DNA from: a virus
Lineage: Duplodnaviria; Heunggongvirae; Uroviricota; Caudoviricetes
Strand: one strand, 5' to 3'
Virus record (IMG/VR): IMGVR_UViG_2579778807_000004
Length of the DNA: 44,314 nt
Each line of letters opens with the position of its first letter. The first letter of the stretch is position 1. Below the pieces are notes generated by a model. It did not search any database. It was not told where the DNA came from and was given only the letters and a program-made list of their open reading frames with translations. Of this stretch, positions 1,166 through 42,675 are shown piece by piece. A program made the translations under genes and the position numbers.

Positions 1166-1759
1166 TCATAAAATTGCGCGAACTTCCGGTGTCATAGGCC
1201 ATTCAATATCCTGTGCAGTTGACGTATCAACACGCTTCAGCAACACCCGATATGTCTTCCATGCCGCCAGTAACGATGTCTCTTCCTCCGTTGCGATTTC
1301 CAGATCTGCAGCATCCTGAAGCGGCGCAATATGCTCACTGGCTACCTGCATCAGGTTGTTTTTTGTTTCTTCCGCCTCCCGGATCCGGAACAGTTTTTCT
1401 GCTTCCGTATCCTTCACCCAGGCTGTGCCGTTCCACTTCTGAAACTCCCCTTCCGGCGATAACCAGGTAACATTTTCCGGTAACGGACCGAGTTCAGAAA
1501 TAAATAACGCGTCGCCGGAAGCCACGTCATAGACGGTTTTACCCCGATGGTCTTCAACGAGATGCCACGATGCCTCATCACTGTTGAAAACGGCCACAAA
1601 GCCAGCAGGAATATCTGGCGGTGCAATATCGGTACTGTTTGCTGGCAGACCTGTATGAGGCGGAATATATGCGTCACCTTCACCAATAAATTCATTAGTT
1701 CCGGCCAGCAGATTATAAATTTTTATGGTCTGTGGTTGTTCACTCATTCTGAATGCCAT
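1166..1759 (-). CDS. tfa: Tail fiber assembly protein
   Basis: Near-identical to remembered lambda Tfa N-terminus ([38 protein letters not shown]...); start overlaps stf stop (TAATG). Confidence 0.92.
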
Positions 1760-25950: not shown

Positions 25951-26224
25951 CATGATGTTACCGTAGTATGTGAGTATCCATCGAATAGATACCAAGCAAA
26001 AAAGCTCCCGAAGGAGCCTTCATTTTCACTTTTTTAAATCCAACGACAGACGGCTGGCATTTAAGTATTGTGAAATATTATCAAATGTAATCATCATTGA
26101 TTTACAAAAGATACATTTTGCCCCGAAAGGATTCATGTCAGAAACATCAAAAGATGATGTTCTATACTGGGAACCATGACAACACGGGCATCTAAAGTGA
26201 ATATGGTTTGTAATATTGTCTACC

Positions 26225-26437
26225 TCAAAGCGCCACTACATGAACAGCGGCAGGACCTTTAGGTCCGTTCTCAATACCAAATTCAACTTCCTGATTCTCA
26301 GTTAATGTTTTGAAATCGTTGCTCTGAATTGCTGAGAAATGGACAAACACATCTTTGCTGCCATCTTTCGGCGTGATGAAACCAAAACCTTTTTCAGGGT
26401 TAAACCATTTCACTAAACCAGTCATTTTGTTAGACAT
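26225..26437 (-). CDS. Cold-shock protein, CspA family
   Basis: [35 protein letters not shown]... canonical cold-shock domain; long AT-rich 5' leader upstream. Confidence 0.92.
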
Positions 26438-26800
26438 AATTATTACCTTTTGAAGAAATTAGCCCTTGGGCAGAATGGTCCGAAAAAAAATATCAGAGAG
26501 AAAAACCAACAAGGAAATCTCAAGAGGTACAAATAATAAAATTATAACAATGACTGCTTCAGATAAATTTGTAACAAACCAGAACACCATTAACGCATGA
26601 TTAACCACCCATAGCAAGGATTACTTTTGTAAAGAAAAACACAGCAATGAAAGAATAGCTTTATTTATTAATAATAACGTGTCATTCTGATTAAGACCTT
26701 TTATCTTACCCTTAAGATTTCAGGAATTTTGGCTCATGGAAGAGTCCTTTTTATTTAAATTTTACATTCCGCGATGTAAATGTTCCGATTTAATATTACC

Positions 26801-29666: not shown

Positions 29667-30626
29667 TTAATTCACCATCAGTCTTAGAGCCAGTTCTTCC
29701 GGATAGGGATCGAAGTAATTCTGTGTAAGCAAGTAATCATTAGGATACTCACCCAGATAATGCTTCAGCAGAGTCAACGGCGCAAGAAGAGGCAATGTGC
29801 CAAAGCGATAGTTAAGTATAACCTCGCTCAACTCTTTACGCTGGCGTGTACTTAAGTAATTACTAAAATACCCCTGTATATGCATCAGCACATTCGTGTG
29901 ATTTTTACGTGATGCTGGTTTTCTGAGAATCGCCATCAGATTATCACGATACACCTCAAAGTATGATTCAAGGTCCGCCCACTCGTGTATTGCAGCCACA
30001 AATGGTCCCATATCTTTATAGCCTGCCTGGCTATGCGCCAACAACTGAAGCTTATAACGACTATGAAAAGCTAATAACTCTCTTCTTGATAATTTCTCCT
30101 TGTAAAGATGATTGAGCTCATGCAAAGCAAAAACTCTTTCAATAAAATTCTCACGAAGCACTGGATCATGTAATCGCCCATCCTCTTCAACCGGTAGCCA
30201 GGAAAACTTTTCCATCAAAGTGCTCGTAAATAGTCCCACTCCATCTTTACGACCTCGATTACCATTTTCATCATAGACACGCACGCGCTCCATGCCACAG
30301 CTGGGAGATTTAGCACAAACCACAAACCCCGATACATCCTTTAATTTGTCCATATAAGAACGACTAAACTCTGTCATTCTCTCTGTCACATCCTCATTCT
30401 GGTCGTGGCTGAAACACATCCGTATATTTCCTTGCTTCGAGCGCACAAGTCGTAGAGCAGGACGCGGAACTGGCAGCCCTATAGCCATTTCCGGACATAC
30501 TGGTCTGAATGTTACCCATTCCACTAATTTGTCCATTAAAAAGTCATCTCTTTTGTGACCACCATCAAAACGAACAGCAGAACCGCCCAAACAACCGCTG
30601 ATCCCAATCACAGGTTTTTTTATCAT
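29667..30626 (-). CDS. DUF523/DUF1722 two-domain protein (YbgA-like; N-terminal domain resembles TudS-type Fe-S proteins)
   Basis: 319 aa; N-terminal Cys-containing motifs (ISGCLGG, CPE, CAKSPSCGME) then YbgA-like C-terminal domain; recalled from memory. Confidence 0.55.
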   Translation of the reverse strand: MIKKPVIGISGCLGGSAVRFDGGHKRDDFLMDKLVEWVTFRPVCPEMAIGLPVPRPALRLVRSKQGNIRMCFSHDQNEDVTERMTEFSRSYMDKLKDVSGFVVCAKSPSCGMERVRVYDENGNRGRKDGVGLFTSTLMEKFSWLPVEEDGRLHDPVLRENFIERVFALHELNHLYKEKLSRRELLAFHSRYKLQLLAHSQAGYKDMGPFVAAIHEWADLESYFEVYRDNLMAILRKPASRKNHTNVLMHIQGYFSNYLSTRQRKELSEVILNYRFGTLPLLAPLTLLKHYLGEYPNDYLLTQNYFDPYPEELALRLMVN

Positions 30627-30818: not shown

Positions 30819-31343
30819 ATGAAGTTATGGCCTGTGTTGACTGGCATTGCACTCTCTTTCACTCTTATAGCATGTAAGGCCCCGACACCACCTAAAGGTG
30901 TGCAGCCGATTACAAATTTTGACGCCAACCGCTACCTCGGAAAATGGTATGAAATAGCTCGCCTCGAGAACTGGTTCGAACGTGGTCTGGAACAAGTCAG
31001 CGCTACTTATGAAAAACGGAACGACGGAGGGATTCGCGTACTTAACCGTGGATACGATCCAACGAAAAACAAATGGAGCGAGAGCGAAGGTAAAGCATAC
31101 TTTACTGGAGATACTAAAACTGCAGCGTTGAAAGTTTCGTTTTTTGGCCCCTTCTATGGTGGCTATAATGTAATCAAGCTGGATGATGAGTATAAGTATG
31201 CTCTTGTCAGTGGTCCGAACAGAGAATACCTATGGATTCTGGCAAGGACCCAAACTATTCCAGATAATGTAAAAGCAGACTATGTGCGTACCGCTCAAAA
31301 GTTGGGATTCAATGTCAATGAACTATTATGGGTTAAACAATAA
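30819..31343 (+). CDS. Outer-membrane lipocalin (Blc-like)
   Basis: Lipoprotein signal (LIACKAP) and strong similarity to remembered E. coli Blc (NFDA.RYLGKWYEIAR...FERGLE...KVSFFGPFYGGYNVI.LD.EY..ALV.GP.R.YLWIL.RT). Confidence 0.88.
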   Translation: MKLWPVLTGIALSFTLIACKAPTPPKGVQPITNFDANRYLGKWYEIARLENWFERGLEQVSATYEKRNDGGIRVLNRGYDPTKNKWSESEGKAYFTGDTKTAALKVSFFGPFYGGYNVIKLDDEYKYALVSGPNREYLWILARTQTIPDNVKADYVRTAQKLGFNVNELLWVKQ

Positions 31344-32944: not shown

Positions 32945-33223
32945 TTACCTCCAGATGCGTTGCTGGAATGTACGGGACGGACGCGGTGGGCGTTCGGAGT
33001 AAGGCAATCTGACTGAGATTATCCAGTGACGGTAGTCGAGACTAAGGGCTTTCTTAACCTCGTATCCGCGCCTGCGGTAACACTGAATTATCCATTCAGC
33101 CTGCTCTTCAGTGCATGGAGGGTGCTGGAACCATTCAGACTTGAATGCGTGAGAATACCGCTCGTGCGTGCAGGCAAGAACGGGCGAATTATCAGAATTG
33201 TAATATTTTACGTTGCGTGCCAT
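32945..33223 (-). CDS. Hypothetical small protein (rem-position)
   Basis: 92-aa ORF directly downstream of DUF968 gene; identity to Rem not verifiable from memory. Confidence 0.4.
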   Translation of the reverse strand: MARNVKYYNSDNSPVLACTHERYSHAFKSEWFQHPPCTEEQAEWIIQCYRRRGYEVKKALSLDYRHWIISVRLPYSERPPRPSRTFQQRIWR

Positions 33224-33289
33224 CGGTTTTCTCCGGTGGCACGGTGTTACTCAGCGGGAGTTCAGCCCCGCGCAAGATTGTAGATGAGT

Positions 33290-33553
33290 TTATTCTTCTG
33301 CAAAAGCTGAAAAGCCTGCTTTTATTCCGATCTCTTTCAGTGCCTGTAATGAAGTGACAAACTCACCTTCGCGCAAGATAAATCCGTCTGTCACTCGACC
33401 ATCCACAAAATTAATTAACGCAGCCCCATTCTTTCGCAAACACATAATGCGGTAATGACTAACAAGATTTCCATTTTCAACGCACACAGCATAGAGGCCA
33501 TCTTCACAAAAATTTTTACGCAGTTCTTCGATGTTCATCATCATGTTCATCAT
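33290..33553 (-). CDS. Hypothetical small protein
   Basis: 87-aa ORF with Met-rich N-terminus between rem-like and hok. Confidence 0.35.
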   Translation of the reverse strand: MMNMMMNIEELRKNFCEDGLYAVCVENGNLVSHYRIMCLRKNGAALINFVDGRVTDGFILREGEFVTSLQALKEIGIKAGFSAFAEE

Positions 33554-33769
33554 CAGAATCCTTCCGGATAATTAGCTCTCCCCTTTAAGGGACCATCCCT
33601 CTTCTCCCTGCGCGCTACTTAAGTATTTTTGATTCTATTCCGGCACCGTCCAGAACTTCAAACGCGTTGAAAATAAAAACAAAAACCCGCCGAAGCGGGT
33701 TAAGTGCGGGTGCGTTGAGGATGCCTGCCACATCAGAGGTGGCGAGGGATTTCTCCCTCGCCGGGTCTC

Positions 33770-33925
33770 TTACTCCTCAGGTTCGTAAGCTGTGAAGACA
33801 GCGACCTCCGTCTGGCCGGTTCGAATTCGTACCTCGCAAAGGTCTTTCCTCGTTACCAGTGCCGTCACTATGACGGTTAAACAGATGACGATCAGGGCGA
33901 TTAACATCGCCTTTTGCTGCTTCAT
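33770..33925 (-). CDS. hokD: Hok/Gef-family membrane toxin
   Basis: MKQQKAMLIALIVICLTVIVTALVTRKDLCEVRIRTGQTEVAVFTAYEPEE matches remembered HokD/RelF; 51 aa. Confidence 0.85.
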   Translation of the reverse strand: MKQQKAMLIALIVICLTVIVTALVTRKDLCEVRIRTGQTEVAVFTAYEPEE

Positions 33926-34155
33926 AGCCTGCTTCTCCTTGCCTTTCGGCACGTAAGAGGCTAACCTACATGTGTCTAGCATGAAATTGGCCTCAGATTA
34001 ATGTTAAGCGTCTTGCAGGACGCGTAATGTTAACTGGGGCTTTTCTCTATCTGCCTTTGGTGTTCATGCCTGAGACAGATAGCCTCAAGCACCCACGGAA
34101 ACTTTACTAAAGGAGTTATAGCTTTTCCAGTAGTCTCAACATATTCACATTGCTA

Positions 34156-35712
34156 TTACCTATCAAACAACGGATGTATTACAAAATCTCTCTTCATATC
34201 AGTAATATCCAAATTAGGTTTATCAAAAGATGAATATATAATTAAAGATGCTGTTTTCCTTATGCCAACCACGCCTACGACGAACCAGACTTTAAGTAAC
34301 TCCTCAAAATTCATCAATATTTTTGTATGTTGATCATCCTCTTTAACTACAGTCAATCTATCAAGTAAATGCTGCGATATATCATCTTTTACTGCTTGTC
34401 CTATGTTTGAGACTGTAAAATCAGAAAATGAAATCAAGGAAAGCACATCCAAATATTCTTCGATAAACGGATATATGCTTTTCCATTCTGTAACCAAAGC
34501 TCTCTTTCTGGACGAATAAAATTTCTCTTCGGCAATTAACACAATATTTTCATTCATGTTAACCATACCATCGCACTCAGAAAGACATATATTTACGAAA
34601 TTAATTGCATCTCTAGGCCTAAGCATTGTTCTGTCAAGGATATAATCATCTGCTCCAATACCTTCAACTGTAAAATTAAAAATATCCTTCATTAATACAG
34701 ACTTATTTGATTGATATCTATTTTTAACCAAATGGTTAATTCTAGCATCAATAATCTCTCTTATTTCCGTTTTATTCCATGATATGGAATATATTAAAGA
34801 TTGATCTTTCTCATCCTGCCTTAAACTACTTTTATAAATTCCCATTAAAATATCTGTTCTTATTGATATCAGAACCTTAACCGACTTTATATCTAATAAT
34901 TCTCGAAAGGCCTCAAGAAGAGCATTAATAAAGTCATATCTGATGGCGCTCGTGCTTAACCAAGATTTATCTAAATCATCGATACTGATTACTATTCTAA
35001 CCTGGTTTGAGTCAGCGAACTCCTCTTTAAGTATTTTAATAAGTTCTTTTTGTTTAAAAAGAAGTTCACGACTCACATAACTTGAAGTTTCTGATTGTAT
35101 TTTGGCTGTATCAGAATTAGATATTTTACCACCCACACCAACAGCGGAATTTCCGAGTTTGAATGACAAATCACTTTCAAGCTTGTTACTTATTTCAATG
35201 AGCGCTTTATCATTGAAGAAATTTTCTTTAAATTGTTCAATATAATCATTCGCAACTTCTGGTTTATACGGTTTCTTCTTACCACCAATAAGATCTTTAA
35301 TTTCCTCAAAAAAGCTTTGATAGGAAGAACGATAAACGGCTGGTATAACTTTCATAAGTAATACATGCAGCCATAACGATTTATAAAACCCACGTAAATC
35401 TATCCCTTTCGAGATCAAATCAGATATAAACACATTGTTATTAATATGTTCAAATATCGTATTTTCTGCCTCTATTGTGTCATGCAGCTTAATATTTCCT
35501 TTGTCTAATATTTTTTTAAGCAACGCAGACTTACCGCTTCCTGTTCTTCCAACAATAATTCTTCTTGTAAAATCAGGATTCTTCTCAGTAGAGTCAAAAT
35601 TCACAATACCTTTAAAAACATTGGACTCATAAAAACAAGCATCAAGATAAGAATCAGTTTCCGCCTCTAATTTTCCAATCTCATCATTATTTCTGAATTT
35701 ATAGGCATTCAT
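34156..35712 (-). CDS. P-loop NTPase of unknown family in an AT-rich island; candidate standalone anti-phage defence / abortive-infection protein
   Basis: Walker A IVGRTGSGKSALLKKI near N-terminus; Walker B-like VRIVISIDDLDKSW ~185 aa later; Arg-containing motif RTMLRPRD; strikingly AT-rich versus flanking phage genes; occupies the relBE-equivalent hotspot. Confidence 0.7.
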   Translation of the reverse strand: MNAYKFRNNDEIGKLEAETDSYLDACFYESNVFKGIVNFDSTEKNPDFTRRIIVGRTGSGKSALLKKILDKGNIKLHDTIEAENTIFEHINNNVFISDLISKGIDLRGFYKSLWLHVLLMKVIPAVYRSSYQSFFEEIKDLIGGKKKPYKPEVANDYIEQFKENFFNDKALIEISNKLESDLSFKLGNSAVGVGGKISNSDTAKIQSETSSYVSRELLFKQKELIKILKEEFADSNQVRIVISIDDLDKSWLSTSAIRYDFINALLEAFRELLDIKSVKVLISIRTDILMGIYKSSLRQDEKDQSLIYSISWNKTEIREIIDARINHLVKNRYQSNKSVLMKDIFNFTVEGIGADDYILDRTMLRPRDAINFVNICLSECDGMVNMNENIVLIAEEKFYSSRKRALVTEWKSIYPFIEEYLDVLSLISFSDFTVSNIGQAVKDDISQHLLDRLTVVKEDDQHTKILMNFEELLKVWFVVGVVGIRKTASLIIYSSFDKPNLDITDMKRDFVIHPLFDR

Positions 35713-35961
35713 TGAACAAAAGCTCCATGCTATCTGTAGTTTGGTTTTTAATTATAAAAACATTTTATTAACAATTCCACTAAATTGAAACATAATGACA
35801 ACATGAAACAAAACGTTAGAGGTCAGTTGGCATCAATTGCTCTACCTAAGCTCTGTTACCGACTCCCCGACTACTCCCCAAAATTTTTTGTCTCTGGTAT
35901 CCGTTGCTGTTCCGGCGACATTCCTGCGCCGCAGCCTGTTTCGACGCTGTTGACCTTTCGG

Positions 35962-36174
35962 TTACCGCTTTTGCAATGCAGATTTTTCCTGCCAGTTCGG
36001 TACCAGCCGATATTTTTTCCCCTCCCGCACAAGCTGCCCGTACCGCTGTATGTTCTGGAGCAGGTTTTGAATTTTCTTGTTGGTCACACCAAGAGCATCA
36101 GCCAGCTCCCGGAACGTGGCTTCCCCGTTCTCCAGCAAATGCTGGATTGCGGCCTGTTGATTACTGCTGTGCAT
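35962..36174 (-). CDS. Small winged-helix DNA-binding protein (70 aa), possibly a truncated replication-gene remnant or regulator
   Basis: HTH-like segment ATFRELADALGVTNKKIQNLLQNI; translationally adjacent to the O-like gene; phage-like GC content. Confidence 0.45.
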   Translation of the reverse strand: MHSSNQQAAIQHLLENGEATFRELADALGVTNKKIQNLLQNIQRYGQLVREGKKYRLVPNWQEKSALQKR

Positions 36175-36176
36175 AC

Positions 36177-37142
36177 CTACCCCCTGAATCCCGGTGGAAT
36201 TTCGCTGTCCGGCTCAGAAATATGATTCACACAACGCTGTACAGGTGAACGCCCCAGGCGAATGACCAGTTCATCCCATTTTTCGCGGAGCTTTGAAGGG
36301 CTCATGATGTTTTTTACCCAGAATGGATCTCGCTGAACCCGACCAAACATTTCGCAAATTTGTTTATGGCTTCTGCCATCCAGCATCCGCATTGTGCGCA
36401 CGTCATTAGCCCAGGCAGTCCAGTTAGGCTCTTTTGGTCGCATGATCTCGCCATCATCACTGGCGGCCTGTTCGTAAAGGCTCACGATTCGTGCCCAGAT
36501 CCATTGCGCACACGCCAAATCCTCCTGATTCCCCCACTGACGTTTTTTAGCACTGAAAACCACCGCGTCAGGATATTGGGTTAAATAATTCTGTTCAGCT
36601 GTCTGCGGGTCCGATTGCGAAGCTTCCGGACGAAAAGTGTTTTTATTCTCTGTAGTAATCTCTGTTGTATTCTCTGTAAGATCATCAGGCCATTTTGACC
36701 CGATGACATTGGGTCGTTTTGAACCAATGGAGCGTTTCATTTTGACCTCTTCCATCGTGTCATTTTGACCTGATGGAGCGGCGCATTTTGAACCGATGGA
36801 TTCGCTCAATTTGCCATCATCTAAAAGCTCGCTCCCATAGTTAATCGTGTAGAAATTGGTCATATCGCGCTTTGATTTATTGAGCTTTTCACAACGCAAA
36901 AGCCCCAGCGTTTTCAGACTTGCAAACGCGCGCTTTAACGTTGACTCTGACCAGAATGGGAACTGTTCCAGCCATTGTTCCGTTGTGTTGTAAATCCAGC
37001 GAACACCATCACATTCCATGCCGGAATTGGTATCTCTCAACCAGTAATGCAACTGCTGCAACACAATGGCTTCATTTAAGCCAATCTTCATCGCAAGCTG
37101 TGTGTTTATAACCAGTGGGCGTTCAGCAAAAAGAAGGCTCAT
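36177..37142 (-). CDS. Replication initiation protein (lambda O-like N-terminal replisome-organizer domain, divergent C-terminus)
   Basis: N-terminal region resembles lambda O DNA-binding domain; position downstream of cro/cII-like genes; start set at internal Met (track 37196). Confidence 0.6.
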   Translation of the reverse strand: MSLLFAERPLVINTQLAMKIGLNEAIVLQQLHYWLRDTNSGMECDGVRWIYNTTEQWLEQFPFWSESTLKRAFASLKTLGLLRCEKLNKSKRDMTNFYTINYGSELLDDGKLSESIGSKCAAPSGQNDTMEEVKMKRSIGSKRPNVIGSKWPDDLTENTTEITTENKNTFRPEASQSDPQTAEQNYLTQYPDAVVFSAKKRQWGNQEDLACAQWIWARIVSLYEQAASDDGEIMRPKEPNWTAWANDVRTMRMLDGRSHKQICEMFGRVQRDPFWVKNIMSPSKLREKWDELVIRLGRSPVQRCVNHISEPDSEIPPGFRG

Positions 37143-37644
37143 AATTCCATCCAGCTTTTTGTTGGTATTGCTGTCGATACGCAAGTTTGAAAGCAATTGC
37201 TTTTTCTATAAGTTCGTCAGTTTCACGATCCACTACGGCAGGATCAGCAAAAAGCAGTCCGGACTCCACCACATCGCCATATTCTTTGTTTAACCCGGCG
37301 ATCATGTACGTGATGCTTTTTCCGTCACTAATTTCACGATACAACCTGAAATCATTAATCCGGATAGCCTCCATAATTGCAGGCACTAGCGCCGTGAACT
37401 TTTCACGCTTATCCCTGGTGTCGATAGCCTTCCAGCGTTCGAATATCTTCACTCGATTAACGCCAAGCGCTCGCTGATCAACCGCGCCACCTTCATCTGT
37501 GACACGCTGAACATCGATGTTCGGGCGCTCTTTCAAAGCCCAGAATGCTTCAGTGATTAATATCGTCGCCTGCTCCTGTGTCATTCCTGGTCGACATATC
37601 CAAGCATCCAGAGCCTCACGAGCCTGTTCAGGAGTGATTTTCAT
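37123..37644 (-). CDS. Hypothetical protein at the cII position (possibly YdaT/CII-like regulator)
   Basis: 173-aa ORF translationally coupled downstream of the cro-like gene; family not confidently recognised. Confidence 0.4.
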   Translation of the reverse strand: MKITPEQAREALDAWICRPGMTQEQATILITEAFWALKERPNIDVQRVTDEGGAVDQRALGVNRVKIFERWKAIDTRDKREKFTALVPAIMEAIRINDFRLYREISDGKSITYMIAGLNKEYGDVVESGLLFADPAVVDRETDELIEKAIAFKLAYRQQYQQKAGWNYEPSFC

Positions 37645-37855
37645 TGTTCAACCGCCCCGCCCGCTTCGTCTTACGATATTCGTCATAAACCTTGGGATCA
37701 TACAGAAGCTCGCCGCCAGATGCCTCCTGTAGACGCATCGCGCGACCTTCAGGAACCAGCTCTTGCCATTGAGAAACAGCAGATGGGTCAACGCCAGCAG
37801 CTTTCGCTACTTTGGCTTTCGTACCGTAAAAATTAATTACGTCTGATTTAAACAT
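37628..37855 (-). CDS. dicC: Cro-like repressor DicC
   Basis: C-terminus ...VPEGRAMRLQEASGGEL.YDPKVYDEYRKTKRAGRLNNENHS matches remembered DicC; divergent from dicA. Confidence 0.8.
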   Translation of the reverse strand: MFKSDVINFYGTKAKVAKAAGVDPSAVSQWQELVPEGRAMRLQEASGGELLYDPKVYDEYRKTKRAGRLNNENHS

Positions 37856-39506: not shown

Positions 39507-39562
39507 TTTCTGGTGACGTTTGGCGGTATCAGTTTTACTCCGTGACTGCTCTGCCGCCGTTT
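39507..39562 (+). ncRNA. dicF: DicF small regulatory RNA (FtsZ translation inhibitor)
   Basis: TTTCTGGTGACGTTTGGCGGTATCAGTTTTACTCCGTGACTGCTCTGCCGCC followed by TTTTT matches remembered DicF; between ydfA-region and dicB. Confidence 0.85.
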
Positions 39563-40203: not shown

Positions 40204-42675
40204 ATGAGTAAAGTCTTTATTTGCGCCGCTATTCCTGACGAACTGGCAACAAGGGAAGAAGGCGCTGTGGCTGTAGCCACAGCCATTGAAGCTGGCGACG
40301 AACGCCGTGCTCGAGCAAAATTTCACTGGCAGTTCCTGGAACATTATACGGCTGCTCAGGACTGCGCTTATAAATTTATTGTCTGCGAGGATAAACCTGG
40401 CATACCTCGCCCTGCCCTCGATTCATGGGATGCTGAATATATGCAGGAAAACCGCTGGGATGAGGAGTCTGCTTCTTTTGTCCCGGTTGAGACTAAATCC
40501 GATCCGATGAACGTCACTTTTGACAAGCTGGCCCCTGAAGTACAGAACGCTGTCATGGTTAAGTTCGACACATGTGAAAACATCACCGTTGATATGGTTA
40601 TTAGCGCACAGGAATTGTTGCAGGAAGACATGGCAACATTCGACGGACATATCGTTGAAGCGTTGATGAAAATGCCAGAAGTTAACGCCATGTATCCGGA
40701 GCTTAAGTTGCACGCCATTGGGTGGGTTAAGCATAAATGTATTCCTGGTGCTAAATGGCCCGAAATTCAGGCAGAGATGCGCATCTGGAAAAAACGTCGC
40801 GAAGGTGAACGCAAGGAAACCGGAAAATACACGTCTGTTGTTGATCTCGCCCGCACCAGAGCCAATCAACAGTACACTGAAAATTCAACAGGAAAAATCA
40901 GCCCGGTCATTGCTGCCATTCATCGCGAATACAAGCAGACATGGAAAACACTGGATGACGAACTGGCCTACGCTCTCTGGCCTGGTGATGTGGATGCCGG
41001 AAACATTGACGGCAGCATCCATCGCTGGGCAAAAAAAGAAGTTATCGACAACGACCGCGAAGACTGGAAGCGTATCTCGGCATCAATGCGCAAACAGCCT
41101 GATGCCCTTCGCTACGACCGCCAAACTATTTTTGGCCTTGTCCGTGAGCGTCCGATCGACATTCACAAAGAACCCGTAGCACTGAACAAATATATCTGCG
41201 AATACCTGACGACAAAGGGCGTGTTTGAGAATGAAGAAACAGACCTGGGCACTGTTGATGTTCTCCAGTCATCAGAAACACAAACTGATGCAGTGGAAAC
41301 TGAGGTATCTGATATCCCAAAAAATGAAACCGCGCCGGAAGCTGAACCATCTGTAGAGCGTGAGGGGCCGTTCTATTTCCTCTTCGCAGATAAGGACGGA
41401 GAAAAATACGGTCGCGCAAACAAACTTTCTGGTCTGGATAAGGCACTGGCTGCTGGCGCCACTGAAATCACTAAAGAAGAATATTTTGCCCGAAAAAATG
41501 GCACATACACGGGCTTACCGCAAAATGTAGATACCGCTGAAGATTCAGAACAACCAGAACCGATAAAAGTTACCGCTGACGAAGTAAACAAAATTATGCA
41601 GGCAGCCAATATCAGCCAGCCTGACGCCGATAAGTTGCTTGCTGCATCACGTGGTGAATTTGTTGAAGGGATTAGTGACCCGAATGATCCGAAATGGGTT
41701 AAGGGGATCCAGACCCGCGATTCTGTGAACCAGAACCAGCATGAATCGGAACGGAACTACCAAAAAGCGGAACAAAACAGCCCAAATGCGTTACAAAACG
41801 AGCCAGAAACGAAACAGCCTGAACCAGTGGCGCAACAGGAAGTGGAAAAAGTCTGCACCGCCTGCGGTCAGACCGGCGGCGGCAACTGCCCTGATTGTGG
41901 CGCGGTGATGGGCGACGCAACATACCAGGAAACATTCGATGAAGAGTATCAGGTTGAAGTTCAGGAAGATGATCCGAAGGAAATGGAAGGCGCTGAACAT
42001 CCACACAAGGGGAACACTGGCGGCAATCAGCATCACGATAGCGATAATGAAACTGGCGAGACGGCAGATCACTCAATTAAGGTGAACGGTCATCACGAAA
42101 TCACATCCACCAGCAGGACGTGTGACCATCTAATGATCGACCTTGAAACCATGGGAAAAAATCCTGATGCCCCGATCATCTCAATAGGTGCAATATTTTT
42201 CGATCCGCAAACCGGAGATATGGGACCGGAATTTAGTAAGACTATCGATCTGGAAACTGCTGGCGGAGTCATTGATCGGGACACCATTAAATGGTGGCTT
42301 AAGCAATCACGCGAAGCGCAATCTGCCATTATGACCGATGAAATCCCGTTAGATGATGCACTGTTACAATTGCGGGAATTTATCGACGAAAACTCCGGTG
42401 AATTTTTTGTTCAGGTCTGGGGAAATGGAGCCAACTTCGACAACACGATTTTGCGCCGTTCATACGAACGGCAGGGGATCCCCTGCCCGTGGCGTTACTA
42501 CAACGATCGCGATGTACGCACAATCGTTGAGCTGGGGAAAGCCATAGACTTCGATGCCAGAACGGCTATTCCATTCGAAGGTGAGCGCCATAATGCACTT
42601 GATGACGCCCGTTACCAGGCAAAATACGTTTCAGTTATCTGGCAAAAACTGATCCCGAGTCAGGCTGATTCTTAA
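40204..42675 (+). CDS. Large early-region protein with C-terminal DEDDh (DnaQ-like) 3'-5' exonuclease domain and a Cys4 zinc ribbon; intact YdfE-like
   Basis: C-terminal motifs MIDLETMG, WGNGANFD and HNALDDARY; zinc ribbon CTACGQTGGGNCPDCG; N-terminus resembles remembered K-12 YdfE. Confidence 0.7.
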   Translation: MSKVFICAAIPDELATREEGAVAVATAIEAGDERRARAKFHWQFLEHYTAAQDCAYKFIVCEDKPGIPRPALDSWDAEYMQENRWDEESASFVPVETKSDPMNVTFDKLAPEVQNAVMVKFDTCENITVDMVISAQELLQEDMATFDGHIVEALMKMPEVNAMYPELKLHAIGWVKHKCIPGAKWPEIQAEMRIWKKRREGERKETGKYTSVVDLARTRANQQYTENSTGKISPVIAAIHREYKQTWKTLDDELAYALWPGDVDAGNIDGSIHRWAKKEVIDNDREDWKRISASMRKQPDALRYDRQTIFGLVRERPIDIHKEPVALNKYICEYLTTKGVFENEETDLGTVDVLQSSETQTDAVETEVSDIPKNETAPEAEPSVEREGPFYFLFADKDGEKYGRANKLSGLDKALAAGATEITKEEYFARKNGTYTGLPQNVDTAEDSEQPEPIKVTADEVNKIMQAANISQPDADKLLAASRGEFVEGISDPNDPKWVKGIQTRDSVNQNQHESERNYQKAEQNSPNALQNEPETKQPEPVAQQEVEKVCTACGQTGGGNCPDCGAVMGDATYQETFDEEYQVEVQEDDPKEMEGAEHPHKGNTGGNQHHDSDNETGETADHSIKVNGHHEITSTSRTCDHLMIDLETMGKNPDAPIISIGAIFFDPQTGDMGPEFSKTIDLETAGGVIDRDTIKWWLKQSREAQSAIMTDEIPLDDALLQLREFIDENSGEFFVQVWGNGANFDNTILRRSYERQGIPCPWRYYNDRDVRTIVELGKAIDFDARTAIPFEGERHNALDDARYQAKYVSVIWQKLIPSQADS

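Follow-up and report, generated by a model that had tools for sequence, protein, structure and literature searches.

The replication module of a Qin-like lambdoid prophage: an O-like initiator gene with no helicase-loader gene beside it

The replication modules described for lambdoid phages and prophages differ in what accompanies the initiator. In lambda an O gene with internal iterons is followed by a P-type helicase loader, in the Rac prophage (ydaU-ydaV) an IstB/DnaC-family ATPase comes directly after the initiator, and in P22 (gene 18 / gene 12) a DnaB-like helicase is encoded in the early region. A further arrangement, the O-only module, consists of an O homologue without any helicase or loader. 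The replication module of the cultivated phage LLS is a single gene of this kind, and an O homologue is all that is present in 34 of 314 Enterobacterales lambdoid phages, whose replication is described as 'not yet understood' (Genome Res 2025, PMC12315714). Relatives of the mEp460 type are named in the same paper, and LLS has been grown experimentally (PMC12315714). Here we analyse the replication module of IMG/VR virus record IMGVR_UViG_2579778807_000004 (Caudoviricetes), a stretch of 44,314 nucleotides that we refer to as the window, in which an earlier reading made from the sequence alone (hereafter the sequence-only reading) had suspected that an AT-rich island carrying an NTPase gene removed or truncated the helicase-loader gene.

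The window is a Qin-like lambdoid prophage. Its positions 33200-37700 (4.5 kb compared) are 99.5-100% identical to a prophage in 10 complete E. coli genomes (for example NZ_CM135961), where it occupies the ydfJ/rspB (Qin) site. Compared with the four arrangements above, the window has an O homologue with internal iterons as in lambda but no P-type loader downstream of it, no IstB/DnaC-family ATPase directly after the initiator, and no DnaB-like helicase in its early region; what it does have is the O-only module. The explanation that we favour, and to which we give as a whole a probability of about 0.8, is that the loader-less module is the normal state of this family and was inherited as such and not produced by damage, making the prophage a typical representative of the O-only modules already described. 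On this explanation the small gene after O is a frameshifted ren-like gene, the NTPase is cargo, and the host DnaB-DnaC complex would be recruited for helicase loading.

The comparison with the described systems can be made in some detail. Like the O-only phages (LLS and the 34 of 314), the window has a single O homologue, no P-, DnaC- or DnaB-like gene, and a module placed after cro and cII; no essential difference separates them, the usual gene after O in those phages being a DUF977 gene where the window copy has a frameshifted Ren-family gene of 109 aa and the NTPase cargo. With the lambda O-P-ren region it shares a homologous O C-terminal domain, iterons and an AT-rich region inside O, a Ren-family gene after the replication genes, and variable 'nin-like' genes before Q. 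Lambda, however, has P where the window has none, its O protein ends in …TDWIYGVDL, and the N-terminal origin-binding domain is of another type. In the ydaU-ydaV-ydaW region of Rac the order of ydaS/cro, ydaT and initiator is the same, the initiator ends in the same C-terminal IPPGFRG tail, and a copy of the window's 109-aa gene (76% identical in DNA) follows ydaV in Rac-like prophages. Rac differs in that a homologue of DnaC (49% identity) begins 7 nt past the initiator, and in that YdaU, a protein of the DUF1376 type, bears no relation to the window O except in the tail.

The O-like initiator and its loader-less relatives

The initiator gene (36177-37142, minus strand) encodes a protein of 321 aa that matches PHROG 391 ('replication initiation O-like') at 1.2e-91, and whose C-terminal domain is 33% identical to residues 135-270 of lambda O (E 8e-22). 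A Pfam search of the protein returned no match at E<=0.01, and PHROGs and the direct comparison with lambda O were used in its place. Identity to O is 95-96% in phages HannyBb, PhiR42_1 (host ECOR13) and mEp460_ev081, and 69-95% among mEp460 derivatives. RefSeq and all of the phage records start the gene at the ATG at 37142; the mechanically called ORF begins instead at an in-frame TTG at 37196, which would give an O of 339 aa and a 74-nt overlap with the cII-like gene.

A putative origin lies inside the gene (36644-36821; families D1-D3 of a repeat search). Five to six iteron copies (…CATTTTGA(A/C)C…GATG) with a spacing of 23-24 bp occupy 36683-36821, and after them comes an AT-rich stretch (36644-36679) containing three 12-bp TATTCTCTGTAG repeats. 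This is the layout of the annotated lambda ori iterons inside O, and the iterons and AT-rich repeats of the window probably act as an origin in the same manner.

With regard to the loader, tblastn of the window with E. coli DnaC, two YdaV proteins and lambda P found nothing (the best E value was 0.02, for short and spurious matches), and the 59 RefSeq features of the identical prophage in NZ_CM135961 include no helicase, loader or primase. A DnaB-like helicase is likewise absent from these features and no ORF of suitable size exists in the early region, a result obtained without a direct DnaB query. The statement of the sequence-only reading that no P-, DnaC- or DnaB-like gene is visible thus holds. 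Nor were remnants of a loader detected, the distance from the O stop codon to the next gene being only 2 nt and tblastn finding none within 34095-35845.

The same loader-less layout is found in close relatives, some of which are deposited as phages. Relatives S30 and STEC316, with O proteins 95% identical to that of the window, have O, a 140-aa DUF977 gene, a variable gene and hokD without a loader, and the pair of O and DUF977 (at least 80% of the query covered) is present in 1591 of 5426 complete E. coli genomes. HannyBb, PhiR42_1 and mEp460_ev081, which are deposited phage genomes, each show this loader-less layout, and in HannyBb the whole genome gave no DnaC-, YdaV- or P-like sequence by tblastn. 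In the more distant O-only relatives SfIV and mEp460_4F5 the genes after O are also non-loader genes, with a PerC-like gene in place of a Ren-family gene. A metagenomic contig (L020/L021), whose O is approximately 90% identical to the window O over its C-terminal half, shares with the window an identical junction of the O stop and the following ATG (GGGGGTAGGTATGCACAGCAG), after which come an intact 111-aa gene, DUF1627, DUF551 and hok, with neither a loader nor an NTPase gene. Since the relatives share this loader-less junction and layout, the arrangement in the window appears to be inherited, and the sole local damage is a slip of 1 bp in the gene that follows O.

Among IMG/VR contigs with a window-type O (at least 92% identical), 10 of 12 are loader-less and two have a DnaC-like gene. 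In these two (L109 and L137, O 92% identical) a YdaV-like DnaC homologue, DUF1627 and DUF977 lie downstream of O, which points to the loader as a cassette that can be gained or lost at the place between O and the gene of the Ren family.

The ren-like gene and the cargo slot

As the sequence-only reading reported, O is followed by a winged-helix ORF of 70 aa (35962-36174, minus strand; matches to TrmB at 8.5e-6 and to HTH_24), which starts 2 nt past the O stop codon (…GGGGGTAGGTATG…). Its suggestion that this ORF might normally be the N-terminus of a longer protein was correct to the extent that a database search with the 70-aa protein gave 18 homologue clusters, in which the intact relatives are 106-111 aa long and 74-80% identical; the longer protein belongs, however, to the Ren family and is no loader, and it was interrupted by a slip in a run of A residues and not by the island. 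In the alignment the window protein departs from its homologues after …PNWQEK and reaches a stop 7 codons on, while the -1 frame of the window continues as …ICIAKAVTERSTASKQAAAQECRRNSNGYQRQKILGSSRGVGNRA up to a stop codon and matches the C-termini of the relatives. DNA alignments with L020, L007 and L009 place the shift at 35983-35987 (minus strand), where the relatives read CAGGAAAAAATCTGC (A6; CAGGAAAAA[A]TCTGC) and the window reads CAGGAAAAATCTGC (A5). With one A added, the reading frame extends to 109 aa and its product shows 72-77% identity to the intact homologues from end to end, and the out-of-frame tail alone matches these homologues with an E value of 8e-21. The frameshift-inactivated gene would thus span 35846-36174 on the minus strand, the out-of-frame remnant running to the ancestral TAG stop at 35846-35848. 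By these alignments the 70-aa ORF is the in-frame remnant of a 109-aa Ren-family gene after an A6-to-A5 slip, its product has lost a conserved C-terminus of 45 residues, and it represents no fragment of a loader.

Assignment to the Ren family comes from PHROG 142 ('Ren-like exclusion protein'), which matches the 70-aa ORF at 2e-8 and the intact homologue P0013 at 2.3e-12 (profile positions 10-110 of 116), and which also recovers lambda Ren (1.6e-41) and DUF977 proteins (4e-46). The Pfam DUF977 model (PF06163) itself is matched by neither the 70-aa ORF nor P0013, and the similarity to a DUF977 protein amounts to 23% identity at E 0.007. K-12 YdaW was considered as a DUF977 protein and set aside, as it is a DUF1627 protein that does not align with DUF977. 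The gene has the profile match of a Ren-family member and lies directly downstream of the replication genes, although it lacks a full-length CDS. The profile match together with the position of ren indicates that the small gene is a ren homologue and not a loader fragment; by profile and place it holds the position that ren has after O-P in lambda, outside the replication machinery. Lambda ren, whose function is escape from Rex exclusion, is non-essential and dispensable for replication.

Frameshifts in this gene are not confined to the window. The copies in the Rac-like prophages of strains C41 and NRZ103545 are frameshifted at a poly-C run and unannotated, an E. coli allele of 100 aa (P0010) is frameshifted in another A6 run, and P0016-18 are also aberrant. 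The two A-runs lie approximately 30 nt apart on the minus strand (36012-36017, approximately, and 35983-35987), and both are A6 in intact alleles. The ren-like gene looks to be one that decays often, whether from proneness to homopolymer slips or from relaxed selection. We also considered programmed -1 frameshifting on GAA-AAA-T as a means of restoring the 109 aa, and rejected it by reasoning: the heptamer is non-canonical and an A5 run is too short for transcriptional slippage.

The 2-nt gap, which would couple its translation closely to that of O, the intact winged-helix domain, and the occurrence of a Ren-family gene (of the DUF977 or the 109-aa type) after the replication genes in most relatives could together be taken to mean that the 70-aa protein truly works with O in replication, as a small partner or as a regulator, and substitutes for P. 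We regard this as improbable. The ORF is a frameshift remnant without the conserved C-terminus, the family decays often in the alleles just described, a family member is also present downstream of complete modules with O and a DnaC-like gene and so is no substitute for a loader, the O-only phages SfIV and mEp460_4F5 have no Ren-family gene, and the protein groups with lambda Ren.

The island itself begins beyond the ren-like gene. GC content is 0.53 over 35850-36149 but only 0.30 over 35550-35849, and it remains between 0.29 and 0.35 throughout the NTPase gene, so that the abrupt AT-rich switch described in the sequence-only reading is real, although it had been placed at 35800-35830 and the break in homology is at approximately 35845. 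The alignment of the junction with intact relatives that had been called for locates both edges. On the left, homology to L004, L005, L007, L009 and L020 stops a few nucleotides past the ancestral stop (approximately 35845), and on the right, homology to all Qin-like relatives resumes at approximately 34095, which is the 5' end of the Rfam sok match (34094). The AT-rich segment (34095-35845, about 1.75 kb) has the NTPase gene as its only gene. Its conserved right flank is the hokD/sok toxin-antitoxin locus (33770-34094, minus strand; Rfam sok at 33920-34094 with 118 bits, hokD a RefSeq CDS), which is identical in all aligned relatives. Because the island starts just past the ancestral stop of the ren-like gene, it would have removed no replication gene; as the aligned sequences have it, the island abuts the ren-like gene without cutting into it, and the ORF was shortened independently of the arrival of the island.

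These junctions bear directly on the proposal that a P- or DnaC-like loader was lost to the island, or to the recombination that introduced it, leaving the prophage replication-defective. An ancestor with a loader is conceivable for part of the mosaic: L109 and L137 combine a near-identical O with a YdaV-like gene, and the 109-aa gene of Rac-like prophages normally has a DnaC-like gene before it. However, the left edge of the island is approximately 330 nt from the O stop and cannot explain a loss between O and the ren-like gene, and the O-stop/ATG junction is common to L020 and L021, where the small gene is intact and both loader and island are absent. The loader-less state of most window-type O contigs, the 1591 E. 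coli genomes in which O is directly followed by DUF977, and the deposition of loader-less relatives as phage genomes point the same way. The junction alignments already largely refute a deletion of the loader, and we consider it very unlikely.

Next to the ren-like gene, as the sequence-only reading had it, is a P-loop NTPase gene (34156-35712, minus strand). Its product of 518 aa scores above the cutoffs of the NCBIfam Sll1717 model NF047389 (6e-53, 180.5 bits, cutoff 75) and of Pfam KAP_NTPase PF07693 (1.6e-6, 28 bits, cutoff 20), and below that of NF053860, an 'anti-phage protein' model (39 bits, cutoff 370). No PADLOC family matched the protein at E<=0.001, and a simple scan of 35713-35845 for a minus-strand promoter of the gene found none that was convincing. 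The exact cassette is present in only 10 of the 5426 genomes, the same ten that carry the matching prophage, while the same O is widespread.

In related contigs (compared in L002, L003, L004, L010-L012 and L019) the slot that separates the Ren-family gene from hok/sok is filled differently, with SIR2, HEPN, QueH or another Sll1717-type ATPase (28% identical) in some and with methyltransferases, an ORC/Cdc6-like AAA protein or a peptidase in others, and in the C41 Rac-like prophage it holds a complete IetAS defence system (PADLOC 2e-131 and 2e-267). It is this series of unrelated genes in one slot that marks the NTPase as cargo and not a replication protein. To judge from the gene content of relatives, the slot is a recombination-prone cargo hot spot with conserved flanks, and nothing ties the NTPase to replication. 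Such a slot resembles prophage defence hot spots in its fixed position, its conserved flanks (Ren-family gene and hok/sok) and the different AT-rich genes that it holds in each strain, and differs from them in that the window NTPase matches no PADLOC model. From family and position one may guess that it is an accessory or defence gene.

The sequence-only reading had also raised the possibility that the NTPase was recruited into replication, as a helicase loader or another factor. It is a P-loop NTPase encoded downstream of O on the same strand, but it resembles neither DnaC/IstB nor DnaB nor lambda P, its affinities being with Sll1717/KAP proteins and, faintly, with an anti-phage model. Its composition (GC 0.30) is foreign, its cassette is rare beside a widespread O, and the corresponding slot of relatives is occupied by unrelated genes such as SIR2, HEPN, QueH, IetAS and methylases. 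This proposal did not survive the comparison, and we think it the least probable of those considered here.

The DnaT-like tail of O

Helicase loading in this module would draw on the host, and the C-terminus of O offers a candidate for the contact. The protein ends in …SEPDSEIPPGFRG, and its last 20 codons (QRCVNHISEPDSEIPPGFRG; 36180-36239, minus strand; tail peptide VNHISEPDSEIPPGFRG) encode a stretch that is identical at 15 of 20 positions (75%) to the C-terminal peptide of the host restart protein DnaT (primosomal protein i; residues 160-179 in E. coli). Outside these 20 residues O does not align with the N-terminal domain or the linker of DnaT, and it has no match to the DnaT domain PF17948. 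In the host the gene bearing the tail lies 2-3 nt before dnaC, an arrangement like that of the phage initiators with a DnaC-like gene behind them. A 'DnaT_C motif' on the O-like protein DopC has been noted previously (Brezellec et al. 2017, PMC5509034); a literature search for the peptide PPGFRG gave nothing relevant.

The tail is shared by proteins that are otherwise unrelated. It is found on Rac YdaU (DUF1376) and on initiators with other N-terminal domains (L007 and L009), and appears as IPAGFRG in SfIV-type O proteins, while lambda O, which uses P, is without it. All told, the motif is common to host DnaT, at least four unrelated phage initiator scaffolds and the window O. The 120 matches sampled by a scan of IMG/VR for IPPGFRG followed by a stop codon are all the ORF ends of initiators (the complete ORFs mostly 260-400 aa, with a few shorter). 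Where at least 800 nt were available downstream (111 matches), the tail is followed by a DnaC-like gene 7 nt past the stop in 56, by DUF977 in 45 and by other genes in 10. No lambda-P-like gene was found in the available DNA of these 111 loci, and where no loader follows the tail, a DnaC-like gene is absent from the rest of the locus as well. In a GTDB sample of species genomes the matches to an extended motif are all in Enterobacterales, and consist either of dnaT with dnaC 2-3 nt on or of a prophage initiator followed by a DnaC-like gene. Matches to the shorter motif outside Enterobacterales were discarded as chance (TGG in place of the stop, or short ORFs) and are removed by the extended motif.

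That the tail precedes either a DnaC-like gene or no loader, and never lambda P, suggests recruitment of host DnaB-DnaC. The tail appears to travel with DnaC-type loaders, encoded next door or probably supplied by the host, and phages seem able to do with or without a loader gene of their own. In the mechanism that we propose, O would bind the iterons of the origin inside its own gene and would itself recruit host DnaB-DnaC, probably through the DnaT-like C-terminal peptide. A more specific version of this idea is that the approximately 17-residue VNxxSxPDxxIPPGFRG is a portable docking motif for a DnaC-type loader or for DnaB-DnaC, such that O-only phages may mimic DnaT to capture host DnaB-DnaC at the origin and a DnaC-like gene of their own is optional. 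We put this forward tentatively, at somewhat less than even odds, on the strength of the sequence comparisons.

A host origin for the loader also agrees with part of what the sequence-only reading had named as refuting its suspicion, namely that the 70-aa gene would be full-length in all relatives and a functional loader supplied by the host or encoded elsewhere in the prophage. A host-supplied loader fits our favoured explanation; the 70-aa form, however, is not the full-length one, the relatives having 106-111 aa.

The wider prophage and what the module means

Absence of a loader is one matter and activity of the prophage another. The layout could be intact and the prophage nevertheless cryptic or replication-defective, owing to point mutations in O or the origin or because the Ren-family protein is required in full length. 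Prophages of the Qin type are often cryptic and one gene of the operon is already frameshifted, but O is full-length with its tail and iterons intact. In addition, the annotation of the identical prophage in NZ_CM135961 runs from integrase through tail fibres with zero pseudogene marks inside, and gives int, xis, the repressor gene, cro, Q and the genes for lysis, terminase, head and tail as intact. We judge a cryptic state unlikely, though the most credible of the alternatives. A requirement for a Ren-family protein in replication would make this prophage defective; counter to such a requirement, SfIV and mEp460_4F5 carry the PerC-like gene instead. To judge from close relatives that are deposited as phages and from published work on such modules, O-only members, and with them this prophage, would be competent for replication.

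Several points weigh against our favoured explanation. The prophage is without the DUF977 gene of most of its close relatives, and the gene that takes its place is frameshifted. Replication of this particular prophage is argued from relatives and the literature. As for the tail, loss of DnaT residues 154-179 only modestly weakens cooperative binding of single-stranded DNA (PMC4132743). A 2026 preprimosome paper favours the N-terminal domain of DnaT as the possible recruiter of DnaB/DnaC (PMC13377028); the structures in that paper do not settle how DnaB-DnaC is recruited, and its text does not take up the extreme C-terminus of DnaT (PMC13377028).

The remaining genes of the early-right operon are in keeping with a lambdoid prophage. 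The operon runs on the minus strand in the order cro, cII-like, O, ren-like, NTPase cargo, hokD/sok, rem, a 92-aa ORF, ydfU and Q. The first gene is Cro-like (37628-37855; P22_Cro 4.5e-16, a RefSeq CDS in the identical prophage), followed by a cII-like gene of the YdaT family (37123-37644; PHROG 163 'CII-like' 2.3e-40, Pfam YdaT_toxin 1.2e-5). The unnamed 92-aa ORF (32945-33223) lies between rem and ydfU, the latter encoding a DUF968 protein.

Elsewhere in the window, two genes between Q and the lysis cassette are likely morons, one for a YbgA-family protein (29667-30626, minus strand) and one on the opposite strand for a lipocalin-family lipoprotein (30819-31343, plus strand). The early-left operon encodes an 823-aa protein annotated as a 3'-5' exonuclease (40204-42675, plus strand) in the position of RecE in Rac; at this position a related contig (L020) has Exonuc_VIII and Rv2179c-like domains. 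Rfam matches include the DicF antisense sRNA (39508-39559, plus strand, 72.5 bits), upstream of dicB/ydfD as in K-12 Qin, a cspA thermoregulator (26198-26583, minus strand) ahead of the prophage cold-shock gene cspI, and IS009 (1218-1416, minus strand) at the left end of the prophage.

The slot between the ren-like gene and hok/sok, having yielded IetAS, SIR2, HEPN and two kinds of Sll1717-type ATPase, is a useful place to seek prophage-borne defence genes. For annotation, the lack of a loader beside O should not be read as a sign of prophage decay, because about half of the sampled tail-bearing initiators have none. The DnaT-like tail provides a testable lead both on helicase loading in O-only phages and on how DnaT hands DnaB-DnaC over to the restart fork. 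If the proposal is true, the comparative genomics of phages would point to the element of DnaT that recruits DnaB-DnaC, the very step left open by the 2026 preprimosome structures.

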